Below, piece after piece: positions 4,371 through 59,249 of a DNA stretch of 64,000 bases. The notes beneath the pieces were generated by a model. That model was not told the DNA's origin. It saw only the letters and a program-made list of their open reading frames with translations, and did no database searches. Source of the stretch: Hydrolagus colliei. Taxonomy: Eukaryota. The position numbers were made by a program, and so were the translations under genes. The stretch's first letter is position 1. Each line of letters starts with the position of its first letter. The stretch spans positions 83,576,001 through 83,640,000 of the forward strand of contig CM068745.1 in NCBI GenBank assembly GCA_035084275.1, read 5' to 3'.

Positions 4371-4544
4371 AGTGGGTGGGAGGGTAGAGAAAGCTGTTAT
4401 TTGGTTTTCTCGAGTTGACTTGTATTTGAATGAAACTCCCCCCCCCCCCCCAGCCCTTGGTATTCGTGGCACTGTTTCCTCCTTGTTTTAAACAGACCAC
4501 ACACAGTAACCCAAAGCCAAGTTCCTCCTCTTCCCCTAAGCCTG

Positions 4545-4575
4545 TGACTCAGTCAGTGACTGAGTCAGTGAGTCA
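4545..4575 (+). promoter_or_regulatory. Cluster of three AP-1 consensus sites upstream of stefin copy 1
   Basis: TGACTCA 4545-4551, TGAGTCA 4561-4567, TGAGTCA 4569-4575. Function untested. Confidence 0.4.
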
Positions 4576-4659
4576 GGTACAGCAACCGTCACAAGACACA
4601 TTGACACACAGCAATTACTGAGTGTTACATTGTAGACCATCAGAGGATCTGCACTGATT

Positions 4660-4904
4660 TACACACTCTCACTCACTATCTCACTCGCTCACTAACACAC
4701 GCGTGCACACACACTCACACACACTCACTAACTCACGCACACTCTCACACTAACTCACTCACTAACACACACTCACTAACTCACTCACTAACTCACGCAC
4801 TCACTAACTCACTCACACACTCACTAACTCACGCACACTCACTCACACACTCACTAACTCTCACTCACTCATTCTCTCACACACACACACTCTCACTCAC
4901 TCAC
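4660..4904. repeat. (CACT/CA)n simple repeat immediately 5' of stefin copy 1
   Basis: Directly visible; a shorter mirrored version lies at about 13355-13510. Confidence 0.9.
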
Positions 4905-4930
4905 ATATAAATCAGACAAGTTCTGACATT

Positions 4931-5014
4931 ATGGCTGGTCAATTCCCCATGTGTGGTGGCATCAACCCCCAAGCCAACCCTGCCACACCAGAGATTCAGA
5001 AGCTTGCTGATGAT
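4931..5014 (+). CDS. Stefin (type 1 cystatin, cystatin A/B-like) copy 1, exon 1
   Basis: MAGQFPMCGGINPQANPATPEIQKLADD|GTGAGT. Has the conserved N-terminal Gly and a phase-0 intron as in CSTA/CSTB. A versus B orthology cannot be decided here. Confidence 0.93.
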
Positions 5015-5259
5015 GTGAGTATTTCTGTGAATGTGCCTCTCTCTCTCTCACTCTCTCTCTCTCCTCCTCCCGCCTTCACTCCCCTTCCTTCACCAAGCCA
5101 CCCCTGTTGTCACTACAGTCTGGTGACTTCCTGGTGTAGAATCCTCCCTGGAAATGAAATGTCTGTGCGGATGATGAAGCTGCTGCTTTTGCCGTTAAAT
5201 GTGATTTTGTTGTTGTTTTACTACAACAACTTGTGTATGTTTATCAAGCGCTCTTCATA

Positions 5260-5632
5260 ATAACAATACTAATAACCACAAGGCTTGCGTTTGACACTGC
5301 GCTTCTCACCTGTGTGACTGTATATTTTGTGGGTGAAACGCGGCAGCCAATTGCGCACAGCGGCGTCCCACAGACAGTCGTGGATTGAGTGACCAAATTA
5401 GTATTGGTTTTTTGTGAGGGATCCTTATCAGGCGTGTGGAGCAAGGAAACTCTCCCAAGGTTTCACTCTGACCGGCCGGGATTCAAACCCAGGACTCTCA
5501 CTGACATTGTAAACATCTGTGACCAGGGATCTCTTTGCCTCCTTGTCCTTGGCGCCATCCAAGTGTCATTGTGTTGTTGTTGTTGTTGTTGCAAGGCGAA
5601 TGCTCCAACCACTGAGCTACAGGACTACATAT
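5260..5632 (-). mobile_element. tRNA-derived Deu-core SINE in stefin intron 1, with a short L2-derived insert (about 5500-5590)
   Basis: Core CTGTGCGCAATTGGCTGCCGCGTTTC on the minus strand plus a tRNA-like head. Mirrored at about 12625-12995 (+). Confidence 0.75.
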
Positions 5633-6194
5633 CGGAATTGCTTTCAGGAACAAAATTACATTTGTATCATAATAATAATTTATACCCTTAATAATGTAAG
5701 AAAAACCAAAGCCCCCTCTCCTGACTTCTGTTGTTACAGATATCCCCCTGATTTACGAAGTTTCTCTTTACATGTTTTCGATTTAACGAACGTAATTTTT
5801 TTAACGTTTTGTTTCCTTTTCCCGACAAACATTTTTTGCACATGCACGGTACACAGTATAGTGTATTTTGCAGTAAAATCGCAGTCGTAAACTGTATCCA
5901 AGCGTCTGAAACCTTGCCTTTGTGGGCTGTTTTGTGTGTTATTTTGGTGGGTTGTTTTGTGTGTTAATTTGGTGGGTTGAAGGTCTGAAAATTTTGTCAA
6001 AAGAAGGCGTCTCGTGTTATATAATGGGACTGCGTAGGAAACCGCGTTTCTGTTTACGACATTTCGGTTTGTGTCACGATTTTCAGGAACGCAATCCCGT
6101 CGAAGATTGGGAGGTTCCTGTATTTCAGATTTCAAGCCTCTAGTGTTTTGCCATTGCCCTTAATAATGTCGTTGTTTTAATTCTTGTTCTTCAG

Positions 6195-6296
6195 CTGCGG
6201 AAAGCTATTGAAGAGAAGGCTGGAAAGCAGTTTACTGTGTTTGTGGCCACACATTACAAGACACAAGTTGTCGCTGGAACCAACTATTTTATAAAG
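6195..6296 (+). CDS. Stefin copy 1, exon 2
   Basis: TTCAG|LRKAIEEKAGKQFTVFVATHYKTQVVAGTNYFIK|GTAAAT. 102 nt with the QVVAG cystatin motif. Confidence 0.96.
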
Positions 6297-6859
6297 GTAA
6301 ATATTGTCCCTTTGGCAGGAAACAGTTACATTTTTACTATCAGAATAATCCTTGCATTTGACAGATGCCTCAAAGCGCTTCACAGGATACACTGTACAGT
6401 GAATTGACTATGTATTCTGCGGTGAAATGTGGCAGCCAATTACACATAACGTTGTCCCACAAACGCTTGTGGATTTGAGTGATTTCCTTTGTTTAAAAGG
6501 GATTTTTACCCTGGAAAAGCAATCCACCAATCGACGGTAACAACCGTGTTCCTACTTACTGCTGGGGAAACAGGAGTGCGGAGTGAGGAACCTTCACTAA
6601 AGTTTAGCACTGAGCAATAAACAAACCCAGCTTCTCTTGCTCACGAGACAAGCTTTTCCTCTGGTGTTGGGATTGTGAGCAGGAATGCAGAGTGACTGGA
6701 CACTCCCGTGGGGTTAGGGTAATGCTGGATTTTGATATTGAATCCTACTCGATGGCTGAATACGCAGTAAGAGACACTAGATTCCTCTTCCACATGTGTT
6801 CCACAGCCTGATTCCTTTTTTTCTCTCTCCATGTGATGTTTTTTCTTCTTCTTCTTCAG

Positions 6860-6988
6860 ATCCATGTTGGCGATGACGAATACCTGCATGTGAGAGTGTT
6901 CAAACCTTTAGATTTTACTAACGCATCCCCAGAAGCCCATAGCATACAGATGCAGAAGACGGCCGAGGACAAAATAACTTACTTTTAA
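6860..6988 (+). CDS. Stefin copy 1, exon 3
   Basis: Polypyrimidine tract and CAG|IHVGDDEYLHVRVFKPLDFTNASPEAHSIQMQKTAEDKITYF*. Typical stefin YF* end. Confidence 0.95.
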   Translation: MHVGDDEYLHVRVFKPLDFTNASPEAHSIQMQKTAEDKITYF

Positions 6989-7235
6989 AGCTGTTTGTTA
7001 TGCCGGTGCCTCTATATATCTGCGTAATTTTGTTGTTGTTGTTGCTTCTGCTGGGGTGTGAGCTGTTGCTGGTGTAGATGTAACTAAAACAAATTGTGGG
7101 ATACTGCTGTGTGCACCGTTGGCTGCTGTGTTTCACCCGCGTAATAACAGTCAATGTGCTTTAATCATATTCTGAAGTGCTCTGAGGTGCCTCAAAGACT
7201 TGACAAGACGCTATTTCAAAATGCAAGTACCGTTA

Positions 7236-7756
7236 CAGTCGACCCTGGCCGAACGTGACTTTCTCTCGAGTGCGGATTCGCCCATACACGCGAAGAAATA
7301 AATGCGGCACTTTTTTTGCGCGACGCGAGTAAAATTTGCGTATAGATTCCTCAGCCTCGGAGTAACCTGATGGCATTGCGTGGTAAACAGAAGAGACAGA
7401 GAGAGAGACAGAGAGAGAGAGGAGAGAGAAAGTCTCCTAACACTTCCAGGACCAAAGATAAAATAATTTAGCCAAGATGTGTTCAGTGTAAGGTGCTGTG
7501 TTAATGTCTCCAGTGAGTCAGTGAGAGCGGGGAGAGTGACGCGTGGGGAGAGCGGGGCCAGCCGGCTGTAGCCCACTTCAGTACGTACCTTGCGTTGGTC
7601 GGGTGTCGATGTGCCGGGAGGCTTGAGGAAGGCTAGTCTGTGGATGGGTTCCCCGAACCCCTTTATTCCCATCACTTATTAAACTTACCCAACGTGATTT
7701 TACCGGGTGCGCTGTTTCCCAGGAATGTAACCCCCGTGTTCGCCGAGGGTCTATTC
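7236..7756 (+). mobile_element. Tc1/mariner Tigger-like MITE in the 3' UTR of stefin copy 1
   Basis: TA on both sides (7234-7235 and 7757-7758). Imperfect TIRs CAGTCGACCCTGGCCGAAC / GTTCGCCGAGGGTCTATTC. The paralogous site in copy 2 has a single TA. Confidence 0.8.
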
Positions 7757-7797
7757 TATCTCTCGCTAAAGAGAAAACTATGCAATAACATGACGGC

Positions 7798-7803
7798 AAT
7801 AAA
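7798..7803 (+). terminator. Polyadenylation signal of stefin copy 1
   Basis: AATAAA, conserved with the homologous signal in copy 2 (10322-10327, -). Confidence 0.65.
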
Positions 7804-7912
7804 AAGATTGAGCTTGATTCTTGGGTTTTTTTTAGGGTGGGGAGGAAATGTCTAAATGTAACTTTCCTATGCAAACTGTCGTTTGTCAACAAAACAATCA
7901 CTCTACTCCTGC

Positions 7913-8160
7913 AGAGTCCTGCAGCTCAGTGGTTAGAGCACTCGCCTCGCATGTGGGTTCAATTCCAGGCAGGGGGAAACCTCGGGCAAGTTTCCTGACT
8001 CCACACGCCTAATAATAATCCATCAACAAAAATAAAATCGGTCATTTCAATCCACGGCTGTTTGTGGGGGACGCTGCTGTGCGCAATTGGCTGCCGCGTT
8101 TCCCCCACAAAATATACAGTCAATTCACTTTACAGTCTGTTCTGTGAGACGTCTAGAAGA
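7913..8160 (+). mobile_element. tRNA-derived Deu-core SINE
   Basis: A box CAGCTCAGTGG, B box GGTTCAATTCC, and the core motif. Confidence 0.8.
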
Positions 8161-8264
8161 TCTTCATTTTCAGCTAAAGATCTTTCTTTTCGACCGCTCC
8201 TTCAGTCACCTTTTTCTCCCTCCCCTGACTCGGGGGAGCGTGGAGTGAGTGAGTGAGTGGGTGA

Positions 8265-9389
8265 GTGAGTGAGTGAGGGCGCAATATAAATCCAAGTTGT
8301 TGTTGTTAATATAATATAAGTTGACTGACAATAGCAACAGAATAACGTGAAGGGAATCCTGGGAGAAGGGCCATGATTGGCCTGACTGGGTGGGTTAGCA
8401 GTTAGTGATGTACTGCTGACTGTGAAAGAACAGGCTGGTGTGAGCTGGCTGGGATAAGGTATGGACAACACCTACATACAGATAATTAACCACCATATGG
8501 GAGAGTCCTTCTCAAGGTGTGGGAAGGGAAGGGAGGCGAGCACAGGAAAATGAGGACAGTCCATGAGGGCAGCAGGAGAATGGGCCGAGTGCCACAAGCC
8601 AATGATGTGGAGACCGTTGGAAGAGGATGAGGTGAGGAAAGGCACAAGCAAAGGCACTAGACGATAACTAACTCGGTGATGTAAGGAGGAGCTCAAGGGT
8701 TACAGGAGGCAGTTCAAACAAAGTGTTAGCCAGGGAAGTGAGGCAAGGAAGGGAGAGACAGGACACTGACTACACCCCAATTAGGAGAAATCTGGATATC
8801 AATCCTGATGCTGATAGAACGGTGCAGAGATAGGAAGGTTTCAGGGAAAAGGGTACAACTCCAGAACGAGCCGGAGAGACAGAGACCAAGCCAACAGGAA
8901 AACAGGCAGCAGCAGGAAAGCCAACCAAGGATCAGAAGAGAAGAGGACAGGTCTGGCTGTTTAGGGGGTGGGGGGGTCGTGTGATCAGCCCACACCGAGA
9001 GTCAGACTATCAACAACTTGTGCTGTTGTGTGATTAGCCAGTACTGTAGCTTGGGAAGCAGCCCTGAAGGGTGAAGTCCAGAGTGAGAGAGAGAGCGAGA
9101 GAGAGAGAGAGAGAGACCGACCTATGGAAGTTCAGTAAACAGCAATCAGGACAGACCACAGAGGCAAAGAAACACACCACCAGAGGGAAACCATACCTTG
9201 AGCTGGTGCTGCTTAACAGACGTCCAGAGCCTGGTAATGTATTGACACACTCACACACCCACTCACTGCGGGGGTGAGAGCCGAGTAGATAAGTTACTAA
9301 TCCTTAAGAGCATCATCCTGTTTATCTTGATGCCTTGTGTCTGTGTGTGCCATACCATGTTAATTGGTATTGTAACTGTTGGCACCTAG
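8265..9389 (+). repeat. Local inverted duplication, arm A (partner about 17678-18778)
   Basis: Near-identical reverse complement; four matching ORF translations appear on opposite strands in the track. Confidence 0.92.
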
Positions 9390-10004
9390 ACGGCGTCTCA
9401 GAGCGCTTCACAGTATCAGATCCCGGGGCCGAGCCAGGGGGAGGGGGTGGGGGGGGGAGGGGGTGGGGGGAAAGGTGACCAGAAGCGCGGTCGAAAAGAA
9501 AAGTCTTGAGGTAGTGTGGTAGCATTTGCACCGTCTCTCTGGAATTCTGAATATACTGTAGATGGAGCCAAACATAACTATACTGGTCGCAAAGTGTCCC
9601 AGCTCGTGTGACTGATTTCTGATCAAGTTCCCCTTATTAGGCAATCCTGTGTCATGGTGGACAGCACCCATCCCTCGGCACCGTTCGAAAAGAGAAGGAT
9701 AAAGTTCTTCATTGATTTCATCCTAAGAACATGATCACAATCCTTGCATTTGACATTTGTGCCTCATCATGTCGTCGCGCAAAGAGCAAAGAGCAAAGCG
9801 TTCCTGTATATTTGGGGATATGATTATATTGTATTATTTTGGGGGGGGGATTATTGCCTTGTGCAAACAGGCTGCAGTGGGCTAAAAGTACACAGTTACT
9901 ACACTTTGCAATAGTGCCTATCAAGCAGTTTGACACGCTTTACTGCTGTGTTAAAGAGCGACAGCAAATGTAAGGATGATCAATGTATTATCGTGAATGA
10001 ATGG

Positions 10005-10195
10005 GATTGATTTGATTCAATAACAGCTTTTAAAAGAGACTGAGATCTTTATTTAGGGAGAGCAGATCTGTTAGGTTATGGGGAGAGAGAGAGCTGGGCA
10101 GTGGGACTGAATCGCTCTTTTCAAAGAGCCACCACGGACTAGATGGGCCGAATGGCCTCCTTTTGTGCCGTAAATCTCTTTGATTCTATGATTGG
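10005..10195 (+). mobile_element. CR1-type LINE 3' end
   Basis: GATGGGCCGAATGGCCTCCT...GATTCTATGATT tail. A similar copy lies at about 19340-19515. Confidence 0.7.
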
Positions 10196-10321
10196 GCCTG
10201 GTTTATGTGGAGTCCAGCAGCTCAGTGGTTAGAGCTCTAGCCGAGCAAACAAGGTTTCCTTTAGACATTTAGACATTTCCTACCCACCCTAAAACAAATA
10301 CAAAGAATCAAGCTCAATCTT

Positions 10322-10327
10322 TTTATT
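10322..10327 (-). terminator. Polyadenylation signal of stefin copy 2
   Basis: TTTATT on the plus strand, about 240 nt past the stop codon, in sequence homologous to the copy 1 3' end. Confidence 0.65.
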
Positions 10328-10567
10328 GCAGTCATGTTGTTGCATAGTTTTCTCATTAGCGAGAGATAATGGTACTTGCATTTGAAATAGTTTTGTATGG
10401 TAAACAGTGATAGAATATTAGAAGCATATTTTTTGGGGGGAGGGAGGGGGCGGAGGAGGGGGGGGGATTACAGTCAGATACAATATTTTTTAGTTACATC
10501 TAATGCCACCAACATTCCAGTCCCCAGCAGAAGCAGATACATGAAGGCGTCAGCATCACTGAGAGCT

Positions 10568-10696
10568 TTAAAAGTAGACTATTTCACCCGTGGCTGTGTG
10601 ATGCAGCTGAATGGCGGTTAATGACACCAGCGGAGAGTCACAAGGAATGGGTTGGAACATTCTTGCATGTAGGTAGTCATCATTGCCAACTTTGAT
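10568..10696 (-). CDS. Stefin copy 2, exon 3
   Basis: Minus strand TTTTTTACTTCTTCAG|IKVGNDDYLHARMFQPIPCDSPLVSLTAIQLHHTATGEIVYF*. Same 129-nt length as copy 1. Confidence 0.94.
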   Translation of the reverse strand: MKVGNDDYLHARMFQPIPCDSPLVSLTAIQLHHTATGEIVYF

Positions 10697-11504
10697 CTGA
10701 AGAAGTAAAAAAATCACATGAAAAATACAGGAATTAGCCTATTGAGCACACACACATATGTGTGTTTTTTATTGTGCACTTCAACTGCAAACCTTTATCA
10801 GAGGAGTAATAATAAATAATAATAATAATCTTTACATTTATATAGCGCTTTCCACGTCTCATCGACGTCTCAAATACATACAAGCATGACAAGGAATTTC
10901 ATGACCAAAATGTATATCAATATTATGTATGTAAAGCTATCTTAGTCTTGCCTTTCCAAATTCAATTGATCTGATGAAAACTTGCTTGAAAAGCTGTGAG
11001 AATTTTTGTGGAAGAGGAATCTAGTGTCTCTTACTGCGTATTCAGCCATCGAGTAGGAATCAATATCAAAATCCAGCATTACCCTAACCCCACGGGAGTG
11101 TCCAGTCACTCTGCATTCCTGCTCACAATCCCAACACCAGAGGAAAAGCTTGTCTCGTGAGCAAGAGAAGCTGGGTTTGTTTATTGCTCAGTGCTAAACT
11201 TTAGTGAAGGTTCCTCACTCCGCACTCCTGTTTCCCCAGCAGTAAGTAGGAACACGGTTGTTACCGTCGATTGGCGGATTGCTTTTCCAGGGTAAAAATC
11301 CCTTTTAAACAAAGGAAATCACTCAAATCCACAAGCGTTTGTGGGACAACGTTATGTGTAATTGGCTGCCACATTTCACCGCAGAATACATAGTCAATTC
11401 ACTGTACAGTGTATCCTGTGAAGCGCTTTGAGGCATCTGTCAAATGCAAGGATTATTCTGATAGTAAAAATGTAACTGTTTCCTGCCAAAGGGACAATAT
11501 TTAC

Positions 11505-11606
11505 CTTTATAAAATAGTTGGTTCCAGCGACAACTTGTGTCTTGTAATGTGTGGCCACAAACACAGTAAACTGCTTTCCAGCCTTCTCTTCAATAGCTTT
11601 CCGCAG
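11505..11606 (-). CDS. Stefin copy 2, exon 2
   Basis: Reverse complement of 6195-6296 with QVVAG and intact splice sites. Confidence 0.95.
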
Positions 11607-12039
11607 CTGAAGAACAAGAATTAAAACAACGACATTATTAAGGGCAATGGCAAAACACTAGAGGCTTGAAATCTGAAATACAGGAACCTCCCAATCTTCG
11701 ACGGGATTGCGTTCCTGAAAATCGTGACACAAATCGAAATGTCGTAAACAGAAACGCGGTTTCCCACGCGGTCCCATTATATAACACGAGACGCCTTCTT
11801 TTGACAAAATTTTCAGACCTTCAACCCACCAAAATAACACACAAAACAACCCACCAAAATAACACACAAAACAGCCCACAAAGGCAAGGTTTAGTATCTA
11901 AAGTGATGACTTTGCGGGGTCCGTTACCCTAGTGGTATTGATGCTGCTCATTTCACTGACTGAGATTGTAGAAACCCGGCAGAGGTGGTAAATCGCTCGA
12001 ACATTGCACGGTGTCGCTTCAAAAGAAACTGGCTTTTAA

Positions 12040-12322
12040 AACGCTACAAAAAAAAGCTTTTAACCCTAAAAAAGAGAAACTTTTAACGCTTAAAAAAAAA
12101 GCGACAGCCCGACCAATTTGTACCAAGAGCGTATTTACAGTTTTAGCTCAACTGAGCGTCAATCGCAATATCGCCCTCTAGTGGTTGGACGACCAATTTG
12201 TATAAAGAGTGCACATAACCAGAGTCCACAAAACAGACGGAGATAACGGTATCGCCCCCTAGTGGTGGGAGGACCTGGGAGACTAATTTGGGTCCCAGCA
12301 AAAAAAAGGTTGGGAACCACTT
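12040..12322 (+). mobile_element. hAT-Charlie-like MITE remnant in stefin copy 2 intron 1
   Basis: Terminus GGGTCCCAGCAAAAAAAAGGTTGGGAACCACT; internal similarity to the 29973-30269 element. Confidence 0.6.
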
Positions 12323-13247
12323 CCCTGGCGATATGCTACTGGATAGTTCAGACGCTTGGATACAGTTTACGACTGCGATTTTACTGCAAAATACACTATA
12401 CTGTGTACCGTGCATGTGCAAAAAATGTTTGTCGGGAAAAGGAAACAAAACGTTAAAAAAATTACGTTCGTTAAATCGAAAACATGTAAAGAGAACCTTT
12501 GTAAATCAGGGGGATATCTGTAACAACAGAAGTCAGGAGAGGGGGCTTTGGTTTTTCTTACATTATTAAGGGTATAAATTATTATTATGATACAAATGTA
12601 ATTTTGTTCCTGAAAGCAATTCCCGATATGTATTCCTGTAGCTCAGTGGTTGGAGCATTCGCCTTGCAACAACAACAACAACAACACAATGACACTTGGA
12701 TGGCGCCAAGGACAAGGAGGCAAAGAGATCCCTGGTCACAGATGTTTACAATGTCAGTGAGAGTCCTGGGTTTGAATCCCGGCCGGTCAGAGTGAAACCT
12801 TGGGAGAGTTTCCTTGCTCCACACGCCTGATAAGGATCCCTCACAAAAAACCAATACTAATTTGGTCACTCAATCCACGACTGTCTGTGGGACGCCGCTG
12901 TGCGCAATTGGCTGCCGCGTTTCACCCACAAAATATACAGTCACACAGGTGAGAAGCGCAGTGTCAAACGCAAGCCTTGTGGTTATTATTATTGTTATTA
13001 TGAAGAGCGCTTGATAAACATACACAAGTTGTTGTAGTAAAACAACAACAAAATCACATTTAACGGCAAAAGTGGCAGCTTCATCATCCGCACAGACATT
13101 TCATTTCCAGGGAGGATTCTACACCAGGAAGTCACCAGACTGTAGTGACAACAGGGGTGGCTTGGTGAAGGAAGGGGAGTGAAGGCGGGAGGAGGAGAGA
13201 GAGAGAGTGAGAGAGAGAGAGAGAGGCACATTCACAGAAATACTCAC

Positions 13248-13331
13248 ATCATCAGCAAGCTTCTGAATCTCTGGTGTGGCAGGGTTGGCTTGGGGGTTGA
13301 TGCCACCACATATGGGGAATTGACCAGCCAT
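13248..13331 (-). CDS. Stefin copy 2, exon 1
   Basis: MAGQFPICGGINPQANPATPEIQKLADD|GTGAGT. Differs from copy 1 by M7I. Confidence 0.92.
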
Positions 13332-13651
13332 AATGTCAGAACTTGTCTGATTTATATGTGAGTGAGTGAGAGTGTGTGTGAGAGAATGAGAGTGAGTGAG
13401 AGTTAGTGAGTGAGTGTGAGTGAGTATGATTGAGTGGATGAGTGAGAGGGTGCGTGAGTGAGAGTGTGAGTGAGAGTTAGGGTGAGAGTGAGTGAGTGAG
13501 TGAGTGAATCTGTGCAGATGCTCTGATGGTCCACAATGTCACACTCAACAAATGCTGTGCCCCAATGTGCTACTTCTCTGTCTCTTGCACTATTTATCCT
13601 CCTCATTCACTGACTCACTCACCACGCCTCGCGAAAGGGGAGGAACGTGGT

Positions 13652-14140
13652 ATTGGGTTGTTGGGTAACCTTCGTCGATCGCGGGGGTTACTTTCCTGGA
13701 GAACTACACACTCAGTAAAATCGCGTTGGGTAAGCTTAAAAGGTAATGAGAAAAGCAGGGTTTAGTGGAATCCAGCCACAGGCTACACACCTCCTGCCTC
13801 CAGGCACCTCCACACCCGACCAATTCAAGGTACGCACTGAGGCGTGCTACAGCCGGCTGGCCCACTCCCCGCCTCTCACTGACTCACTGGAGACAATAAA
13901 ACAGCCAGAAAGCAATAAAAAATGAAGCATTAAAACCGCAGCTTGGCTAAATTATTTTACCTTTGCTCCTGGGAATGTTAGGAGACTCGCTCTCTCTCTC
14001 GCTGTCTCTTCTGTTTACCACGCAATGCCATCAGGATGCTCCAAGGCCAAACAGTCATCAGACTTTCCCAAGTGCGCATGCGTGTGGGCGCAAAAAAATG
14101 ACACTTTTATTTCATTGCGTATGCTTGAAGTCGCAATCAA
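13652..14140 (-). mobile_element. Second, diverged copy of the Tigger-like MITE
   Basis: Reverse-complement similarity to 7270-7750. One end abuts the L2 at 14147. Confidence 0.7.
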
Positions 14141-14146
14141 TAAAGT

Positions 14147-15257
14147 TGCATTCCACAGGGTGGGAGCGGAGAAACTGAAGGCCCGGCCTCCGATGGTGGG
14201 GCGGTTCGGGCGGGGGGCTTGGAGCAGGACAAGTCCTGCTGAACGGAGGGTCCGGGTGGGCGTGTAGGGGGAGAGTAGATCGGTTAAATAGGGCGGGGCA
14301 AGGCCGTGTAAGGCCTTGTAGGTGAGGACGAGGATCTTGAACTCGATCCTCTGGAGGATGGGGAGCCAGTGGAGACGGGCGAGGGTGGGGGTTATGTGGT
14401 CGCGGAGGCGGGTGTGGGATAGTACACGGGCTGCAGAGTTTTGGATGACCTGCAGTCTGTGAATGGAGTAACTGGGGAGGCCGACGAGGAGAGAGTTTCC
14501 GTAGTCCAGCCGTGAGGTGATGTATGCGTGCACAAGTGTTTCGGCAGCGCGGGGGGTAAGATAGTTGCGGAGCCTGGCAATGTTGCGCAGGTGGAAATAA
14601 GCGGTGCCGGTCAAGGCCCGGATGTGGGGGAGGAAGGAGAGTTTATGGTCGAACATGATGCCGAGGTTCCTGACTGGCTTTGTGAGGTGGAGAGTACAGC
14701 CTTGGATGTTGAGGCTGGCAGCGCCCGATGTGCGGAGGCGCTGGCTTGAGCCAATCAGGAGGGCCTCGGTCTTACTCACGTTCAATTGGAGGAAGTTGTC
14801 CCTCGTCCAGGACTCAATGTCGGACAGACATGCTGTCAGAACATCGATGGTCTGGGGGTTGAGGGATGAGGCAGAAAGGTACAGCTGGGTGTCGTCCGCA
14901 TACATGTGGAAATTTACCCCATGTTTGCGGATGACATCGCCCAGAGGGAGCGTGTAAATGGTGAAAAGGAGGGGGCCGAGGACAGAGCCCTGGGGGACGC
15001 CGTGAGAAACTGTGCGGGGGTTTGAGGAGAAACCGTTAGAAGATACAAAATGTAAACGGTGGGTCAGGTAGGAATGGAACCAGTCAAGGACTGTGCCTTG
15101 AAGGTTGAGGTGGGAGGAAAGACGTTGGAGGAGGATGGTGTGATCGACTGTGTCGAACGCAGCAGACAGGTCAAGGAGGACGAGGAGGCAGAGGGAGCCC
15201 TGGTCGCAGGCAGTTAGGTTATCATTTGTAACCTTGACCAGGGCAGTTTCTGTGCTG
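14147..15257 (-). mobile_element. L2-clade LINE ORF2 fragment
   Basis: STETALVKVTND, LLDLSAAFDTVDH, GVPQGSVLGP, YADDTQLY. Same family as 1888-3217. Confidence 0.92.
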
Positions 15258-17677: not shown

Positions 17678-18778
17678 ACTAGGTGCCAACAGTTACAATA
17701 CCAATTAACATGGTATGGCACACACAGACACAAGGCATCAAGATAAACAGGATGATGCTCTTAAGGATTAGTAACTTATCTACTCGGCTCTCACCCCCGC
17801 AGTGTGTGGGTGTGTGAGTGTGTCAATACATTACCAGGCTCTGGACGTCTGTTAAGCAGCACCAGCTCAAGGTATGGTTTCCCTCTGGTGGTGTGTTTCT
17901 TTGCCTCTGTGGTCTGTCCTGATTGCTGTTTACTGAACTTCCATAGGTCGGTCTCTCTCTCTCTGGACTTCACCCTTCAGGGCTGCTACCCAAGCTACAG
18001 TACTGGCTAATCACACAACAGCACAAGTTGTTGATTGTCTGACTCTCGGTGTGGGCTGATCACACGACCCCCCCACCCCCCAAACAGCCAGACCTGTCCT
18101 CTTCTCTTCTGATCCTTGGTTGGCTTTCCTGCTGCTGCCTGATTTCCTGTTGGCTTGGTCTCTGTCTCTCCGGCTCGTTCTGGAGTTGTACCCTTTTGCC
18201 TGAAACCTTCCTATCTCTGCACCGTTCTATCAGCATCAGGATTGATATCCAGATTTCTCCTAATTGGGGTGTAGTCAGTGTCCTGTCTCTCCCTTCCTTG
18301 CCTCACTTCCCTGGCTAACACTTTGTTTGAACTGCCTCCTGTAACCCTTGAGCTCCTCCTTACATCACCGAGTTAGTTATCGTCTAGTGCCTTTGCTTGT
18401 GCCTTTCCTCACCTCATCCTCTTCCAACGGTCTCCACATCATTGGCTTGTGGCACTCGGCCCATTCTCCTGCTGCCCTCATGGACTGTCCTCATTTTCCT
18501 GTGCTCGCCTCCCTTCCCTTCCCACACCTTGAGAAGGACTCTCCCATATGGTGGTTAATTATCTGTGTGTAGGTGTTGTCCATACCTTATCCCAGCCAGC
18601 TCACACCAGCCTGTTCTTTCACAGTCAGCAGTACATCACTAACTGCTAACCCACCCAGTCAGGCCAATCATGGCCCTTCTCCCAGGATTCCCTTCACGTT
18701 ATTCTGTTGCTATTGTCAGTCAACTTATATTATATTAACAACAACAACTTGGATTTATATTGCGCCCTCACTCACTCC
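17678..18778 (-). repeat. Local inverted duplication, arm B (partner 8265-9389)
   Basis: Reverse complement of arm A; differences are mostly microsatellite length and scattered substitutions. Confidence 0.92.
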
Positions 18779-19628
18779 ACGCCGGACGGCGTCTCAGAGC
18801 GCTTCCCAATAACAGATCCCTGGGTTGAGCCAGGGGGAGGGGGAGAAAGGTGACCGAAGGCGCGGTCGAAAAGAAGGAAAGATAAGAAATACTCCCATTT
18901 TTCCACCTTCCTCAACCCCTAACTCCTCATGCCCCGATCTCCGCAGTTCTACCCCCACATTCACCCCTAGAGATCTACCCTTCCCACTCTTTAACATGCA
19001 CCCCTTATTCCCGTACCCAGATCCTGACGCCCCCCTCACCCCCATCTCCCCCACAGGTTTGGATTCTCAGTGAAAGGCAAGGTCACCTTGAAGCTATCAT
19101 TTGATCTATCACATTTTGGAGCTGTGACATTTTTGCTGACTGGCAGATGCAGTCTTACAACTGGCTTGCAATGGAAAAGTCTTTAGCACATTACATATCT
19201 TTTTCTGTCTTGCGAAATATTTTCTTTCCTGGCAACCAAACTGTGCATGTGCATGTTTGCTCCTCTCTGTTTGTTAGGCTAATACCACCACATATACAGT
19301 CACTTTGCAGTATATTCCGTGAAAAGGCTCAAAGGTGGTGGAGGCTGATTCGATAACAACTTTTAAAAGAGAGGTAGACATCTATTTGGGGGAGGACAGG
19401 TTTGCGAGGTTATGGGATGCTGGGGAGTGGGATTGAATTGTTCTTTTTAAAGAGCCAGCACAGACTCGATGCGCCGAATGGCCTCCTTTTGTGCCGTAAG
19501 ATTCTATGATTCTGTGTGATAAGATGTGCAATATCAAATGCAAGGATCAGAAAATACTGCCACTCCCTTCAAGAAACCCCATTACTCATATTTCCGTGTG
19601 TGGCTGCCGTGTTTTACCCACATATATA

Positions 19629-50359: not shown

Positions 50360-51160
<801 letters not shown>

Positions 51161-51384
51161 TGAGCTATATAGGCTAGTTTTGTAAGTATTGTGGGAATAG
51201 GTAGAAAGAGTCAACTTGGGGATGTCTATTTGTGTGTGTGTGTGTGTGTACCAATAGATGTTTGTCTGGGTGTTTGCATGAATGTGCGTGTTTGGATGGG
51301 CACATAGATGAAGACAAATCCAGTTGGGGGAGCTTTGCATTGTTCTGAGGTGCCAATCTTCAGATGAGACATTCAACTGACAAG

Positions 51385-51655
51385 AACAACAAAATGAAAC
51401 TTGTATAGCGACTTTCACGTCAGAAGGACTTCCCAAGGCGCTGGACGGTCAGTGTTTTGGGACATGGGGGACGCGGGGAGGGGAGGGGAGGGGAGGGAAG
51501 TGAGGGATTAGGAGTTTGCCGATGGGTCCATCGAAGAGGAGAGTCTTGAGGTGAGACTTGAAGGAGGCCAGGGAAGAGGGCGAGCGAGGTGGAGGGACTG
51601 TGGGATGGAGTTCCAGAGGTTGGGGGCAGAATGGCTAAAGGCTCGCCGTCGTAGG
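51385..51655 (-). mobile_element. L2 3' end fragment
   Basis: Tail CAACAA...TATAGCGAC...CCCAAGGCGCT and TGGAGTTCCAGAG (WNS motif) on the minus strand. Confidence 0.65.
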
Positions 51656-51999
51656 ACTATCCATTTAGACAGGATAGCCTCCCACCTGCCTGTTCAAGCG
51701 GATGCTAAAAATCCCACAACACGATTCAAAAGGAGGACTATTCTCCTTGTGTCCTGGACCAACGATAGATATTCCAGCTCAAACCATGAAGACTTGACGG
51801 AAAGATTTTTCCAATGGGTTTGGTAATTGCTTACGGTTGCAGTAATTTGCCAACAACTTCACCCCCACTACGCACATCCCATTCCCCCCCCTCCACCCCC
51901 GCCATGAATTTGGCAAAAATTCAGTTTGCGGTTCTTTCAGAGGCTTCAGCTCTTTAGAGGAAGGACCTTGGTTTAACAATGTGTCATTTCTATTCGAAG

Positions 52000-52881
52000 G
52001 TCAGCTACGCTTCTTCGAGCCGGCTGCTGAGCAACAAGAATCAGTACAAGTCTTTCCTTCGTACGATCCCCAACGATGAACAGCAGGCCACCGCCATGGC
52101 CGACATCATCCAGCATTTCCAATGGAACTGGGTGGGAACCCTCGCAGCCGACGATGACTACGGCCGCCCGGGGATCGAGAAGTTTCGAGAGGAGGCGGAA
52201 GAGAGAGACATCTGCATAGACTTCAGCGAGCTGATCTCTCAGTACTACACACAAGAGGAGCTGCAGCACGTGGCGGAGGTCATCCAGAATTCCACGGCCA
52301 AGGTCATCGTGGTGTTCTCAAGCGGCCCCGACTTGGAGCCCATTATACAGGAGATTGTGCGCAGAAACATCACCGGGAGGATCTGGCTGGCCAGCGAGGC
52401 CTGGGCCAGCTCCTCGCTGATAGCCAAGCCCGAGTACTTCCACGTGGTGGGAGGGACCATTGGATTTGCCCTGAGAGCGGGACATATCCCGGGATTCTAC
52501 CATTTTCTGAAGCGGGTGCATCCCAGCAGGTCCTCGGACAACGGGTTTGTGAAGGAGTTCTGGGAAGAGACGTTCAAATGTTACCTGACTGAAAAGTCTC
52601 TGACCCAACTCAAGCAGTCCAAAACACCCGGCCTCGAGGGCATCGCCGTGGTGGGCAATATCACCAGTTCAAAGCTTCTGCCTCCGTGCACGGGGGATGA
52701 GGATATCATGAGTGTCGAGACTCCTTACCTGGATTATACTCACCACCGTATCTCATACAACGTCTACATGGCAGTGTATTCCATCGCACATGCCCTGCAA
52801 GACATCTACACCTGCACACCTGGGAAGGGCATCTTTGAAAATGGATCATGTGCTGACATAAAGAAAGTCGAGGCTTGGCAG
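52000..52881 (+). CDS. CASR: CASR coding exon 3 (mammalian exon 4)
   Basis: 882 nt; [13 protein letters not shown]...ADDDYGRPG...WLASEAWAS...KKVEAWQ|GTAATT. Confidence 0.98.
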
Positions 52882-53282
52882 GTAATTCATTGCAAGCGTC
52901 TTTGTATGTCCAAGCAACCAGGAAACGAACCCTTATTCCCCAGAGCTGCGTAGCATCATACTTTGTTAGTTAAATGGCCCATTGAGCTTTTACCTCTGGT
53001 AGGAGGGTTGGCCCTGTCCATCATAAACTGATGGTATGGAAATCTTGTGGTTGTAATCGCGAAACAATCTCATCCTTTTCCCAGTGGATCATTGAACAAC
53101 AACAAACGACGTTTATAGAACGCCTTTCACATCGGGAGGACGTCCCAAGTTGCTGGCTGAACAGTCAGGTCGGGACCCAAACAAGGGAGAGCGGTAGGGT
53201 AGGTGGGGAGTGGCGGGAGAGAGTTAGGAGGGGAGAGAGGGAGTTGGGAGGACAGCAGAAGGCATGGTTTAAGAGGAGGGTC

Positions 53283-53529
53283 NNNNNNNNNNNNNNNNNN
53301 NNNNNNNNNNNNNNNNNNNNNNNNNNNNNNNNNNNNNNNNNNNNNNNNNNNNNNNNNNNNNNNNNNNNNNNNNNNNNNNNNNNNNNNNNNNNNNNNNNNN
53401 NNNNNNNNNNNNNNNNNNNNNNNNNNNNNNNNNNNNNNNNNNNNNNNNNNNNNNNNNNNNNNNNNNNNNNNNNNNNNNNNNNNNNNNNNNNNNNNNNNNN
53501 NNNNNNNNNNNNNNNNNNNNNNNNNNNNN
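53283..53529. other. Assembly gap (247 N) within a CASR intron, next to an L2 3' end
   Basis: Run of N. No CASR coding exon is missing from the model. Confidence 0.99.
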
Positions 53530-55114
53530 TGATATATATTTCAGGGCAGAAGGGAGTAATTTGCCTCAGCCGTGCTAGTGTGTGCTGTGCTAGTTTCTCA
53601 CCAACTCTCTTTCCCGAGGGAGTTGCCGAGTCTTAGTTCATCTCCTTGCCCTATCCCCATGTGATTTGAACTCTCTCTTCCGCAATTGTTTTATCTAATT
53701 TATTTTTAACGGAGGCGACTGCCTGAGTTCCAATAGCCGCAGTAGATATCTACCCATAATCTGGCAGACATGGGATTTGCCATGTACAGTACTTTCTTAA
53801 AGTCAAGTTAACAAATAACCCCTATGTTAACTTCATCCTCCATTTCACTGATAGCAAGATTTCCATTAAATCAGTCATGCCTGACTTATGTTTCATCAGC
53901 TCGTGTAAGCTGGGAATGTTAGTGTTGGCTTTCAAATGTCCTTCAATTACTTATTTTACAGTAGACTGTGCAGTGAAAATTCACAACATTTCATAACCCA
54001 CTCTTTGTGATAGGAATGCATTACAAAACGCAGTAAATTTCTTACCATCCCCTAGTTATATCGCTGACATTAACTGACCCGTCAATCAGCGCTGTCTCTG
54101 GACTGCTACTGAGGTAAATGGCAGATCGATCTATCGAGGCAGATTTTCATTAACAAATATATATATCTACAGGCGAGTGACTTTATGTAGTTGGTTGGTT
54201 TTCTTTGTTTCCATTCAAGTACATCTCCCTGTGGGGGAATGTGTGGGGCAAGACCCAATGGAGCCCTAAAGAAAGGGAAAGGTCAGTGTCGGAAACATCC
54301 GAGAGTTCAGACTGGAGATATTTAAAGGGCTCGTGTCAAGTCGCACCTGAAGTACTGAACTGTGTGTCTTTCTGGGTTGTCATTGAGACATTATTGGGCC
54401 ATTCAATCCATTGGTGGGAGGAGTGGAACTCGCAGTTTGGTTTTTGGCACTTTGTAAGCGTGGTGATGGGTTTCCGCATGTGTCAGACACCTCCCCCCCC
54501 CCCCCCCCCCACCCCCCCACCACTGACATCCAACAAAGGACCACTGAGGCACAGTGGAGAGATAGCAATCAGATGATTCCCCAGTATTGGATGCTAAATT
54601 ATATACCAACTCAGCGAGGCAAGCGGTCACAGCTGCAGGGTTTGAAGAGAAGATAAATAAATGCTTGCTTTGTCTGAGATGGTACCACATCATCCACATT
54701 GGAAAGCTGATCTCTTTTGAGAACATTGATCAGTCGAAGCACAAGAAAAATCAACAATTTCCATTTACAGGCAGGATGACCCTGTAATAATGTGTCTCTC
54801 CTCCATTGAATACATGTTTCCAGCGCCTCGGGATGCCCTCCTAACATGACAGGCTCTCTACAAGTGTCATTGTGTTGTTGTTGTTGCTGTTGATGTATAC
54901 CACAGATTTCCTGTGAGTTACCATTTTTGGCTTCTATCGTGCACTGGCTGACTTTTCTATGCCTGGTCACAGCATACAGAGAAAGGCAACTGGTCAGATG
55001 CAAAAAATGATCTTATGTGTACTTCTAGCACAATCTTCTAACCTGTTGGAGACATGCACAAGTGGCTTCTGTGTGGGAAGCCGGAGCATTCAATGGCAAC
55101 CTGACAGCCCAGAA

Positions 55115-55600
55115 GTGAACATAAGAACATATGAATTAGGAGCAGGAGTAGGCCATTCTGCCCTTCGAGCCTGCTCCGCCATTCACTAAGATCATGGCTG
55201 ATCTTCTCACCTAACTCTGATTACCTGCCCTATCCCCATATCCCCTAATCCCTCTATTTTTCAAAAATGTATCAGTCTCAGCCTTGAAAACGTTCAAGGG
55301 CTGAGCATCTACAGCCTTCTGGGGGAGTGAATTCCATAAATTCACTACCCTCTGAGTGAAGAAATGTTTCCTCAACTCTGTTCTAAAAGGCTGACCCTTA
55401 ATTTTAAGACTGTGACCCCTGGTTATAGATTCTCCTACCAGGGGAAACAGTCCCTCAGTGTCTACTTTATCCAGCCCTTTCAGAATTTTATATGTTTCAA
55501 TAAGATCCCCCACTAATTCTTCTGTACTCTAGAGAATACAGCCCTAGTTTATTCAACCTATCCTCATAGGTCTGTCCCCTCATCCCAGGAACTAACCTAG
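55115..55600 (-). mobile_element. CR1-type LINE 3' end, well preserved
   Basis: GDLIETYKILKG...TRGHSLK...FFTQRVVNLWNSLP, followed by an (TTCTTATG)-type tail. Confidence 0.9.
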
Positions 55601-55804
55601 TGAAGTGGGTTCATTGGCCATTTATTTCTGTTGTTAGCGGAGAGTTCAATTTCATGTACTCAAGGTGCTGTGGAGGTGGGGAGGGGGAGAAGGGGCTGGT
55701 GGGTGGGAGTGATCTGCTTGTATGTAGAATCTTTCACATCCCAAAGAAAATCCTTAAAGAAAAGGGAAATAATTTAACCTGAAGCAAATGCCTTTATATA
55801 GGCC

Positions 55805-55947
55805 AAACACAAAATACTGCAGATGCTGGCAATCTAAAACAAAAACAGAGAGAGAGAGCTGGGAAAACACAGCAGGTCAGGCAGCAACTATGGAGAAAGG
55901 AAAAAGTGAGCCAAGGTTTCGGGTCCACGACCCTTCGTCAGAACTGG
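55805..55947 (-). mobile_element. Penelope-type terminal repeat with degenerate hammerhead motif
   Basis: Minus strand reads CUGACGA-A-GGGUC-GUG-GACCC-GAAA-CC-UU. Confidence 0.68.
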
Positions 55948-56052
55948 ACCTTTACGTAGGTAATTGGTCTCGTGAGGGAGATAAAAAAATGTGAGGGGGA
56001 TTAAAAAATGCATGATTTATTACAGTGAGTTGCTTGCTCCTCTCTGCTTTAG

Positions 56053-56283
56053 GTCCTGAAACACCTCAAGCACTTGAAGTTTACAAACAGCATGGGCGAG
56101 CATGTCGATTTCGACGACCAGGGCGATCTCAAAGGAAATTACACCATCATCAACTGGCAGCTGTCTTCCGAAGATCAAGATGTCGTCTTTCAAGAGGTTG
56201 GGAACTACAATGCCTACGCTAAACCAGGGGAGAGACTCTACATCAATGAAAGCAAGGTGCTGTGGAGCGGATTCTCCAAAGTG
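56053..56283 (+). CDS. CASR: CASR coding exon 4 (mammalian exon 5)
   Basis: 231 nt; [16 protein letters not shown]...GNYTIINWQ...LWSGFSKV|GTATGA. Confidence 0.98.
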
Positions 56284-57139
56284 GTATGAGATTGACTTCT
56301 GTTCCATTCACGTTCATTCGCAATCAGTGTATCATTTACGGATTTTTGAAAGTTTTGCCCTTCACAATGCATGTTTAGAAGTAGCTTTATGATAAGGAAG
56401 GGGGTGGGGGGGGGAGTCTGAGCTGCATGGGAAACAGGAGTTGGGGGCAGATCGTAGGAGCGATGGTCAAAGAAATAGATCTTTAGAAGGGTTTGGAAAG
56501 CAAAGGAGGAACTTTGGAAGCGTTACCGACAGAGATGGCAAAGTGGCTGAAAGCTCGTCCACTGAGGTTCAGACAGAGGTGAGTTGAGTGGTACGAAACA
56601 ATATTCGAGATGAGGAAGCGCAGGTGGGAGACAGGGCAGCGTTGGGTTGAAGACGGTTAAGGCTTATTTAAGTCTTGAGATCTAATGGTTTATTAGGTCG
56701 CAACAATGGCCCTGGATTAAGTCGCTACACATGTAAACATCTGGAAAACAAAAGTCTTCCTGGTAACAATTCCACCAGTCCAGGTGTGAGAATAAGTTGC
56801 TGGGAAAGCTCACTTGGTGGAAAGCAAGCCATTTAAGATTCAGTTTCATGGTAGTGACATTTCCCCCACACTATTTTTTGTCTGTGAATAAATCTCTCAT
56901 CCGCACACGAACGGTGGAGCACAGATATTAATTCATACATGCAACAGTCTCCTGATTTGTCTACCTAACACAATGTTATGTCTGTGAGTCAGCCTGGCTA
57001 GGTGACAAATAATAATAATAATCCTTGCATTGATATAGCAGCTTTTCACATCTTATCGACGTCTCAAAGCGCTTCACAGAATACACTGTAAAGTGAAGTG
57101 ACTATATTCGTGGGCGAAACATTTTTGTGGGACAACACT

Positions 57140-57450
57140 TTTGCCAAGAAGTTGTGGGTTCAAGCCCCACGTCGGGACTGGGAATCAGAGAGTCCAAGCT
57201 AACACACCGATGCACTGCTGGGGGGTGGGGGTGGGGGTTGCACACTAAACACTAAAGATCCCATGGCACTATTCGAAAAGTGAAGGGAGTTTCTCCCAGT
57301 GTCCTAGTTAAAAAATCTTCCAAATAAAATTGTTCCCTCACTATTGCTGCGCGTAAACTGGCTGCAACGTTTTGCCCAGGGAATTCACAGTCAATGTACT
57401 TTACAGTATATCCAGTGAAGCACTTTGCGACGTTTCGATGTTATGCTGAG
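57140..57450 (+). mobile_element. Older Deu-family SINE (AmnSINE1/SacSINE-like)
   Basis: GGTTCAAGCCCCAC head and AAAGATCCCATGGCACTATTCGAAAAG segment. Related pieces at about 3245-3400, 20950-21060 and 37250-37520. Confidence 0.55.
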
Positions 57451-58436
57451 GTGCATAACCTTAACAATCCCACTAGTCCAGGTGTGAGAATAAGTTGCTG
57501 GAAAGCTCACTTGGTGGAAAGCAAACCATTTAAGATTCAGTTTCAATTCAAAAAAGATTCGAATGCAAGGCTTATTATTTTTTGATTTTGTTTGAAAGCC
57601 CAATTTTCTCTATTTTTTTCCTCTCTTTTGAGGATACAGAGGTTTGCTCGGGTACCGTTTCACAGGACCCAGCCACCCACCAGTACATTACCAGAGTAAC
57701 CAGTTATCAAGTGGGAGCCTAGGAGGCTACTCAACCATGGGAATTATCACAACGGAACCTAATGCTGGTCTCAGACAACAGCAACACATACAAGCAACAC
57801 ATACATTTATTTCCCAGTGAGGGGGTCAATGGATAGCAATTAGGAGAGAAAATATTGGCTGAGTTTTGTCTTGGAAACCCCAAACCCTTAAACACTAAGG
57901 CATTATTGTCTCTCATCAGCAGCTCACACAGCGCACAACTTCCACCAGACCACGAGGGAGGTTTGTTAATCTTTTTTTTTACCAACTGGGAAGTACGATA
58001 GAATAACAATCATGTTTCCCCCCCCCCACCCACACACCAATGATTCAATTATTACATCTTCTGTCCGTTGGATCCAGATCCCTGCAGACCATCAATGTTC
58101 TGGGTTCAATCCCTAGCCTGTGCTGAGTTCGCTGGTTGTAGTAGCAATAGAAACGGAAGATGCCATAATTAGTCTCAGTGCCTTCGTTCCAGCGGACCGC
58201 GTACAATTACTGAGAAAATGTCAAGGCCAGTGTACTTGTATTTTGTGTTAGTGTTAGTGTAAGGACAGCAGTTACATTTGCCACGGTAACAACAAGGTGG
58301 AGATGGCCATTGCGAATGCCATTTGCGATTAGGTTTCTTTGGCTGGTGAATATCGTTATAGTTCGTGTGCGTGACGAGATCGGTCCCCGGCATCCAGTTC
58401 TTTAACAGACATAACTGATTCAATTTATGCTCCTAG

Positions 58437-58560
58437 GTGCCTTTCTCTAACTGCACACACGATTGCGTTCCTGGCACCAGGAAGGGAATCATTGAGGGGG
58501 AACCCACCTGTTGCTTTGAATGCGTACCGTGCGCTGAAGGAGAATACAGTGATGAAAATG
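58437..58560 (+). CDS. CASR: CASR coding exon 5 (mammalian exon 6), cysteine-rich domain
   Basis: 124 nt; [41 protein letters not shown]; G|GTAAG. Not in the supplied ORF track. Confidence 0.97.
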
Positions 58561-59249
58561 GTAAGAAGCGATTGAAAATCACCTTGTGTTGTGCCTGTAA
58601 TTGAGAACGCTGCTCAAACCATACAGAGCACAGGAGTCAGCGCCTTGTTGACTGCTCATCATGTTTCTATCAGGTGAAACCCCATACCCTACCACCAATA
58701 ATGGGAGTATTCAAGAATCCACTTTGCTAATTTACTTCTCTGTATCAAATTTCAGAATAATCAGTAAGAGTGTGAAAGTAAATCTCCTTTTAATATTGTA
58801 ATCCCAGTTCCTATCTGTGTGGGAAACAGCCCGGCACCATCCTGTCTATTTCAGATGTTTCTTCCGATGAAGAAACGTGTGGGCTCCACACTTCTCTGTA
58901 ACGGCTGACAGTAATTCTTTCCGATCAGCGTTTCCATGTGTTTTCAGCTCAATTCACTCGTTATATTGTCTCGAATGATTTCTGCTCTCGGGTGTTAAAC
59001 ATTGAAATATAAAATAACATATTAACTCAGCCATTGGCAAATGGAAGCTGCAATCAGAGGTACTTTGAGACTTAAACCTTTCGTGACCGTTTTACTTGGA
59101 AGTTAGATAGCTTTCTAATAGATAGTTCATACCAGTTGTCCATCTCAATATATAAACCTTGATCACTACTGATGCTGTTATTATTAGATTATTTTGGAAA
59201 GCTTATTGGATCCCAAGAGAAAAATATATTGTTTCCTTTCTCCTTTCAG

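Follow-up and report, generated by a model that had tools for sequence, protein, structure and literature searches.

How can two neighboring genes be almost identical over their first two exons, introns included, and scarcely alike in the third? This question is raised by a pair of stefin (type 1 cystatin) genes in a 64,000-nucleotide stretch of the Hydrolagus colliei genome (assembly GCA_035084275.1, contig CM068745.1, positions 83,576,001 to 83,640,000, forward strand), hereafter the window, in which positions are counted from the first letter. By self-comparison and alignment of the window we found two intact three-exon stefin genes, arranged tail-to-tail. The inverted pair is old and the tract of near-identity within it is young. 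What is new here is that divergence in exon 3 is concentrated in 13 codons across the second binding loop. From these comparisons, we consider it likely that the two genes, an old inverted pair, undergo concerted evolution in part, while their second loop, which lies outside the converted tract, evolves fast.

A tail-to-tail stefin pair and its sharply bounded tract

The features of the pair are as follows.

4505..4662, +: old paralogous upstream flank, 78% alike (versus 13503-13662)
4668..4904: (CTCA)n microsatellite with the 5′ boundary of the left arm
4882..6794, +: left arm of the homogenized tract, with a TATA-like box (4906), exons 1 and 2, intron 1, and most of intron 2
4931-5014, 6195-6296, 6860-6988, +: exons of stefin copy 1, from splice sites and translation
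6795..11006: 4.2 kb spacer between the arms, containing both exons 3
6905..6943, +: hypervariable segment in exon 3 of copy 1 (residues 78-90, corresponding to 72-84 in stefin B)
7757..7862, +: distal 3′ segment, containing an AATAAA, 91% alike (versus 10262-10369)
10613..10651, -: counterpart in copy 2 of the hypervariable segment (codons 16-28 of exon 3)
10751..11006, -: copy-2-specific block of 256 bp in intron 2, with a 70 bp dispersed-repeat fragment, at the 3′ boundary of the tract
11007..13380, -: right arm of the homogenized tract, a reverse-complement match to the left arm
11893..12348, -: 456 bp block found only in intron 1 of copy 2
13331-13248, 11606-11505, 10696-10568, -: exons of stefin copy 2, from splice sites and translation
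13358..13507: matching microsatellite with the 5′ boundary of the right arm

All introns of both copies are GT-AG and in phase 0, and both frames encode 104 residues without stops or frameshifts if the first ATG is used. The copies are identical at 83/84 nucleotides of exon 1 and 102/102 of exon 2, and their products at 61/62 amino acids, the sole difference being Met7 in copy 1 and Ile in copy 2. In exon 3, only 75/129 nucleotides and 17/42 amino acids are identical. No third set of stefin exons was found in the window by tblastn.

The genes belong to the stefins by several measures. Exon 2 matched the Pfam Cystatin family (PF00031) with 30.9 bits against a cut-off of 22.2 and encodes the QxVxG first loop, while exons 1 and 3, searched alone, gave no Pfam match. 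The best PDB matches were cystatins B and A for exon 2, and stefins for a profile of exon 3. Both proteins have the N-terminal glycine and the length of about 100 residues of stefins, and neither has a signal peptide as judged by eye. We compared them with a panel of 113 database stefins, kept by length and identity range from the 120 proteins listed among 1761 profile matches and clustered at 90%; these are top profile matches, so that the panel is biased toward the consensus. Gly9 aligns to a column that is Gly in 113/113 of the panel, and the core residues Gly9, Gln52, Val54, Gly56, His72, Arg74, Gln92, and Phe104 are kept. Like the vertebrate stefins (cystatin A/B; PF00031) described in excerpts of PMC2784779, the pair has three exons, the N-terminal glycine, and the QVVAG loop, but unlike them, both copies here have a changed second-loop Leu-Pro. 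The gap between exon 1-2 identity and exon 3 identity is 0.58 for this pair; across all 6328 pairs of the 90%-clustered panel, the largest gap was 0.43. Searches for a close orthologue gave 0/46 candidates from the exon-3 profile, six distant proteins and none close from exon 2 with its flanks, none close among the 17 examined of 108 matches to representatives, and no cartilaginous-fish name among the best 120 of the 1761 mixed-profile matches.

The arms of the tract are closely similar throughout. Of the 1908 aligned columns between 4886 and 6793, 13 (0.68%) carry substitutions, and there are three indels (4, 1, and 456 bp). The identical run begins on the 5′ side at 4882/13380, within the (CTCA)n array, a microsatellite of variable length, and perfect identity ends at 6794/11007, 65 bp short of copy-1 exon 3. 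The first-pass annotation had described near-identical reverse-complement arms that include introns, a protein identity of 61/62, an abrupt stop 65 bp before exon 3, and an exon 3 with 17/42 identical residues, and we reproduced each of these; its description of the tract, however, left out the 456 bp indel. The 456 bp block has no target-site duplication and its ends differ from those of a related repeat at ~30.1-30.3 kb, and thus it was probably deleted later from copy 1. A 241 bp piece from the block occurred at depth 112 in the short-read run X1 (see below), a depth inflated by repeat words. We also note that an element at ~5735-6122 has loosely inverted ends.

The DNA on both sides of the tract is homologous and far more diverged. 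Identity was 120/154 in the 5′ flank, 50/59 at the end of intron 2, and 68/86 in the proximal 3′ untranslated region; these values exclude gap columns, which raises identity. Overall, the flanks are ~78-85% alike, with ~0.24 substitutions per site, in agreement with the earlier description of outer flanks as homologous but clearly diverged. The distal 3′ segment (96/106 alike) has diverged less than the remaining flanks (P = 0.011) and may be an older conversion patch or a constrained element.

Immediately beyond the tract, the 256 bp of copy 2 have no counterpart in copy 1, and homology restarts at ~6795/10750; about 10 loosely matching bases just beyond the junction leave the position of the indel uncertain by ~15 bp. 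This block of non-homology is a plausible stop for strand exchange, and thus a candidate conversion barrier. Since the divergent part comprises the whole last exon and flank behind the indel, the boundary may reflect a physical barrier, with no need of selection. The 456 bp indel within the tract could likewise turn into a new barrier.

Repeated conversion, a single overwrite, or an assembly artefact

We compared 6750-13357 with public short-read contigs of four of the runs X1-X12 (X1, X2, X6, and X9, the last from a second organism); the comparison covers 40 of 369 difference rows and the 32 pieces listed, beside which there are 344324 more. X1 and X2, two runs of one organism, contain 0.77 and 0.71, respectively, of the search-stretch words. 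None of the contigs compared spans a whole arm, and the two arms are collapsed in them. In each of these two runs, one contig joins the tract to copy-1 exon 3 (415 bp of tract in X1; 298 bp in X2). Moreover, the tract had about double the depth of single-copy pieces (121 compared to 45-50 in X1; 45.2 and 40.8 for tract pieces compared to 19-25 in X2), although contig depth is not copy number and the support from depth is modest. These results bear on the possibility, raised with the original description, that the near-identity is an artefact of assembly or polishing, which the short-read contigs test in part. Such an artefact would fit with the fact that no listed piece spans the stretch, the evidence consisting of short-read contigs, and that the copy-2 junction is unbridged among the listed X1 and X2 pieces. 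It does not account for the contigs that link the tract to copy-1 exon 3, for the doubled depth, for a contig in X9 that bridges the copy-2 junction, or for the nature of the arm differences, 5/13 of which are CpG transitions, an enrichment (P = 0.0006). One CpG is TG in one window arm and CA in the other, while X2 reads CG, the state of neither arm; thus X2 carries another haplotype, and arm differences segregate among individuals. We consider an artefact highly unlikely.

If the tract is real, it could be the product of one event or of several, and here the junctions in other runs are informative. The copy-1 junction was bridged in X1, X2, and X6, the X6 contig extending 45 bp into the tract and differing at 4 of 142 bp. 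The X9 contig across the copy-2 junction extends 124 bp into the tract and differs at 11 of 284 bp. We found that X6 differed from the window at 21/953 positions (2.2%; 3 of 8 listed pieces, omitting two dispersed-element, two copy-1 exon-3, and one copy-2 exon-3 piece, and retaining exon 2 and 32 bp of exon 3) and X9 at 30/954 (3.1%; 4 of 8 listed pieces, omitting two dispersed-element and two exon-3 pieces), with gaps uncounted in both cases. Both distances exceed the divergence of the arms from each other, 13/1908 (P = 0.0007 and P = 1.5e-6, respectively), as does that of the X6 spacer piece alone (12/540; P = 0.005). Thus, paralogues (0.68%) are closer than orthologues, and one junction is seen in each of the two more distant runs. 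If both arms, with these junctions, were already present in the common ancestor and had stayed unconverted since, they should differ from each other by at least the distance between orthologues; they are 3-5 times closer, so at least one homogenization would have come after the one that fixed the boundary. With both junctions present in runs more divergent than the arms, the boundary would predate the latest homogenization, which points to repeated gene conversion.

A single recent overwrite of the 5′ part of one gene, by one long conversion or a partial duplication, would need no recurrence. It is consistent with one sharply ended tract in which divergence is low and fairly even (5′ part, 11 differences; 3′ part, 2; P = 0.15), with a 456 bp indel that has not been erased, and with an arm divergence only about twice that of X1/X2 from the window (12/3510, from 7 listed pieces; P = 0.09). 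Nonetheless, both junctions occur in runs that differ from the window (~2% in X6, ~3% in X9) more than the arms differ from each other, the 1.9 kb tract is long given that mammalian tracts seldom exceed 1 kb (in excerpts of PMC3961182), and the 91% patch of the 3′ flank hints at a previous exchange. We therefore regard one overwrite as unlikely. A single recent partial duplication had been named in the first-pass annotation as the alternative to an old inverted duplication with arm-to-arm conversion and a distinct exon 3; on the partial test that the runs allow, the latter is the better supported, by the strata of divergence (99.3% across the tract, introns included, within older homology of 78-85% on both sides, and 91% in the distal segment) as well as by the junctions.

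Several observations weigh against repeated conversion. The X6 bridge is one contig, of depth 6.9 and with its short tract side, and X6 (depth 4-9) may represent a diverged population within one species. A comparison confined to the tract gives 5/271 differences between X6 and the window, not significantly above 13/1908 (P = 0.06), and the X6 exon-2 piece has a depth of 5.9, not above the 6.2-8.9 of single-copy pieces. One X9 tract piece differs at only 1/132. The 456 bp indel persists within the tract; there is no bridging piece for the copy-2 junction in X1 or X2 among those listed, where only leftover depth fits cover; and the homogenization of the arms is seen in the window alone.

Taking these points together with the evidence above, we favor recurrent conversion and propose the following course. 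An old inverted duplication, its age evident from the diverged flanks, produced the two tail-to-tail genes. Non-allelic gene conversion between arms 4.2 kb apart would then have homogenized promoter-proximal DNA, exons 1 and 2, and most of both introns more than once, halting at the 5′ microsatellite and beside the 3′ 256 bp indel, both of which coincide with the tract ends and may act as barriers. In this way the indel would shield exon 3 from conversion. The two proteins have the N-terminal glycine segment and the QVVAG loop in common and differ in a second binding loop that evolves fast between copies and between relatives, most likely driven by selection for different cysteine-protease targets.

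Divergence of exon 3 at the second binding loop

The differences between the two exons 3 are unevenly distributed: 10/45 nucleotides in codons 1-15, 30/39 in codons 16-28, and 14/45 in the rest. The excess in codons 16-28 (30/39, compared to 24/90 elsewhere in exon 3) was significant in a scan-corrected permutation (P = 0.0005), and only 1/13 amino acids is identical there. In contrast, the divergence of exon 3 outside these codons did not significantly exceed that of the flanks (P = 0.24). The hypervariable segment aligns without gaps to residues 72-84 of stefin B, which form the second hairpin loop and the start of the next strand. In excerpts of PMC5072729, docking predicts Ser72, Leu73, His75, Lys78, and Ser83 of stefin B to contact cathepsin L1, and 20-30% of the binding energy is cited as coming from the second loop in bovine cystatin B. 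The Leu-Pro of this loop is nearly invariant in the panel, which leans to the consensus (Leu in 113/113, Pro in 112/113), and is broken in both copies (Leu-Asp in copy 1; Ile-Pro in copy 2).

A similar pattern was seen between relatives. All 9 of the listed differences between X9 and copy-1 exon 3 are nonsynonymous, with 0 synonymous; 6/9 fall within the hypervariable segment (P = 0.025 by base, 0.08 by codon), and two hit positions that match Lys78 and Ser83 of stefin B. The listed differences of X6 from copy-1 exon 3 are also all nonsynonymous (3/3) and are all among the 9 of X9. X6 has two differing contigs over copy-1 exon 3 (6862-6994), with 9 and 6 differences from the window, which may be two alleles or an extra copy. 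Here, too, there are reasons for caution: 9/9 nonsynonymous has a neutral probability of 0.12, and P = 0.25 relative to the 3′ flank of the same contig, the P value of the excess ranges from 0.008 to 0.25 with the neutral reference chosen, and the codon-level clustering reaches only the 0.08 given above, all from 9 differences among the 40 listed of 369 rows.

The effect of the Met7 difference depends upon where translation starts. A TATA-like box lies only 25 nucleotides ahead of the first ATG, which is short by the usual spacing of these elements. If transcripts begin past the first ATG, Met7 would be the start, and this copy-2 haplotype, which has ATA at that codon, would lack one. In favor of the first ATG are its context, with A at -3 and G at +4, and a 104-residue fish stefin with Gly10-Gly11 and a similar N-terminal extension, described in excerpts of PMC9203827. 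We think that the first ATG is the start used in both copies. Upstream of copy 1 there are three AP-1-like heptamers within 31 bp (4545-4575), with one at the matching place in copy 2 (13611-13617); over the window such sites are not enriched (16, compared to 12.8 expected).

The first-pass annotation had suggested a constant-plus-variable inhibitor pair. The clustering of divergence in the loop supports this as a description of the sequences; that the loops bind different targets would be the functional part of the claim, a prediction from sequence. Conversion could be real and exon 3 could nonetheless diverge by relaxed constraint, or by decay of one copy, without selection for new targets; this explanation deals with function and leaves the conversion history as it is. 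For all of exon 3, NG86 estimates of nonsynonymous (dN 0.57) and synonymous (dS 0.93) divergence, the latter from only 29 synonymous sites, are in keeping with it, as is the break of a near-invariant motif in each copy, and copy 2 would be null if its transcripts started downstream of the TATA-proximal first ATG. On the other hand, both copies lack stops and frameshifts and keep the core residues, their divergence is clustered in one surface segment and not spread, and the first ATG lies in a strong context, with a precedent in the 104-residue fish stefin (PMC9203827, excerpts). Relaxed constraint remains a real rival, with a minor but appreciable chance of being right. With two of three binding elements the same and only the second loop and C terminus different, the pair is a ready-made experiment on stefin specificity.

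Known parallels, the spacer, and the neighborhood

The pattern at this locus is clearly already known, and the stefin pair is a new example without a new mechanism. The nearest parallel is SIGLEC11/SIGLEC16 of primates, which, in excerpts of PMC5701461, are likewise inverted neighbors with ~2 kb of upstream DNA and first exons 97-99% alike within each species (99.3% in human), a tetranucleotide repeat at the 5′ edge, and a more diverged 3′ part, the last two as here. That pair is arranged head-to-head and 9 kb apart, whereas the stefins are tail-to-tail with both divergent exons between the arms; the SIGLEC genes have a common ligand-binding domain and differ in signaling, whereas in the stefins the binding wedge itself is split; and the SIGLEC case rests on multi-species trees, the stefin case on one window and contigs. 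Three further systems resemble the pair in part. In RHD/RHCE exon 7, treated with the Innan model of selection versus conversion (PMC3966226, excerpts), some exons are homogenized and fixed differences cluster in an exon thought to be selected; the divergent part of the stefins is instead the whole last exon and flank behind a 256 bp indel. Serpin-type inhibitors with hypervariable reactive centers, from the same excerpts, are also inhibitor paralogues in which the target-binding segment is the most variable and gene conversion is involved, but they have another fold and protease class, and conversion makes the loop variation there, whereas the variable loop of the stefins is outside the converted tract. 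GSTT2/GSTT2B are inverted duplicates kept 99.4% alike by conversion (PMC3375281, excerpts); these genes show similarity over their whole length and silencing changes spread between them by conversion, and no protected variable exon appears in the excerpts.

We found no report of conversion between stefin genes in the literature searched, which included few subscription papers and no supplements, and a search for stefins or CASR in sharks or chimaeras gave nothing relevant; one aimed at the pattern as a whole likewise brought up no paper. Stefin expansion is given for rodents only in the excerpts of PMC2784779. The locus offers a compact natural test of how a divergent exon escapes conversion, by selection or by a physical barrier, since it has both the 256 bp indel at the boundary and a hypervariable binding loop. 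Stefin gene trees and short-read assemblies at this locus will mislead.

Since the genes are tail-to-tail, crossing over of one arm with the other would exchange the two exons 3 between upstream regions that are 78% alike. Inversions at inverted repeats often recur in humans, where the examples are larger than this locus (PMC3961182, excerpts). We speculate that the arms might also cross over, such that the 4.2 kb spacer flips recurrently as a germline-invertible specificity cassette, but consider this quite improbable. If true, the cassette would join two second loops under positive selection to an unchanging inhibitor body, with an expression context that can be toggled, possibly directed against parasite proteases.

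Exons of a calcium-sensing receptor gene lie on the + strand at 50663-60604, ~37 kb from the stefin pair (E = 3e-157 with human CaSR chains), and a 247 bp run of N at 53283-53529, within this gene, shows that the assembly is gapped nearby. The receptor gene identifies the DNA as vertebrate. Human CSTA adjoins CASR, and the receptor gene near the stefin pair fits this neighborhood.

Two sets of inverted sequences might have been taken for parts of the duplication, but neither is collinear with the gene homology, and we rejected both as such. One consists of reverse-transcriptase fragments, similar to long interspersed nuclear elements, at 2005-2985 and 14148-15127 (94%), one upstream of each stefin copy and in the same relative orientation; given the lack of collinearity, these are probably separate insertions. 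A 29 bp near-perfect hairpin (1981-2009) lies at the edge of the first fragment, where the match to the second copy starts, and may be a template-switch scar. The other is a 1.2 kb inverted element at 8181-9389 and 17679-18878 (94%), with a contig depth of 123 in X1 and 44 in X2, which weakly suggests only two or three close copies genome-wide. Its copy in the spacer has loosely inverted ends (8174-8226 versus 9458-9510). Loosely inverted ends are also found in an element at ~7236-7757, which splits copy-1 3′ flank segments that are contiguous in copy 2 and has a relative at 13668-14047 that is 72% alike.

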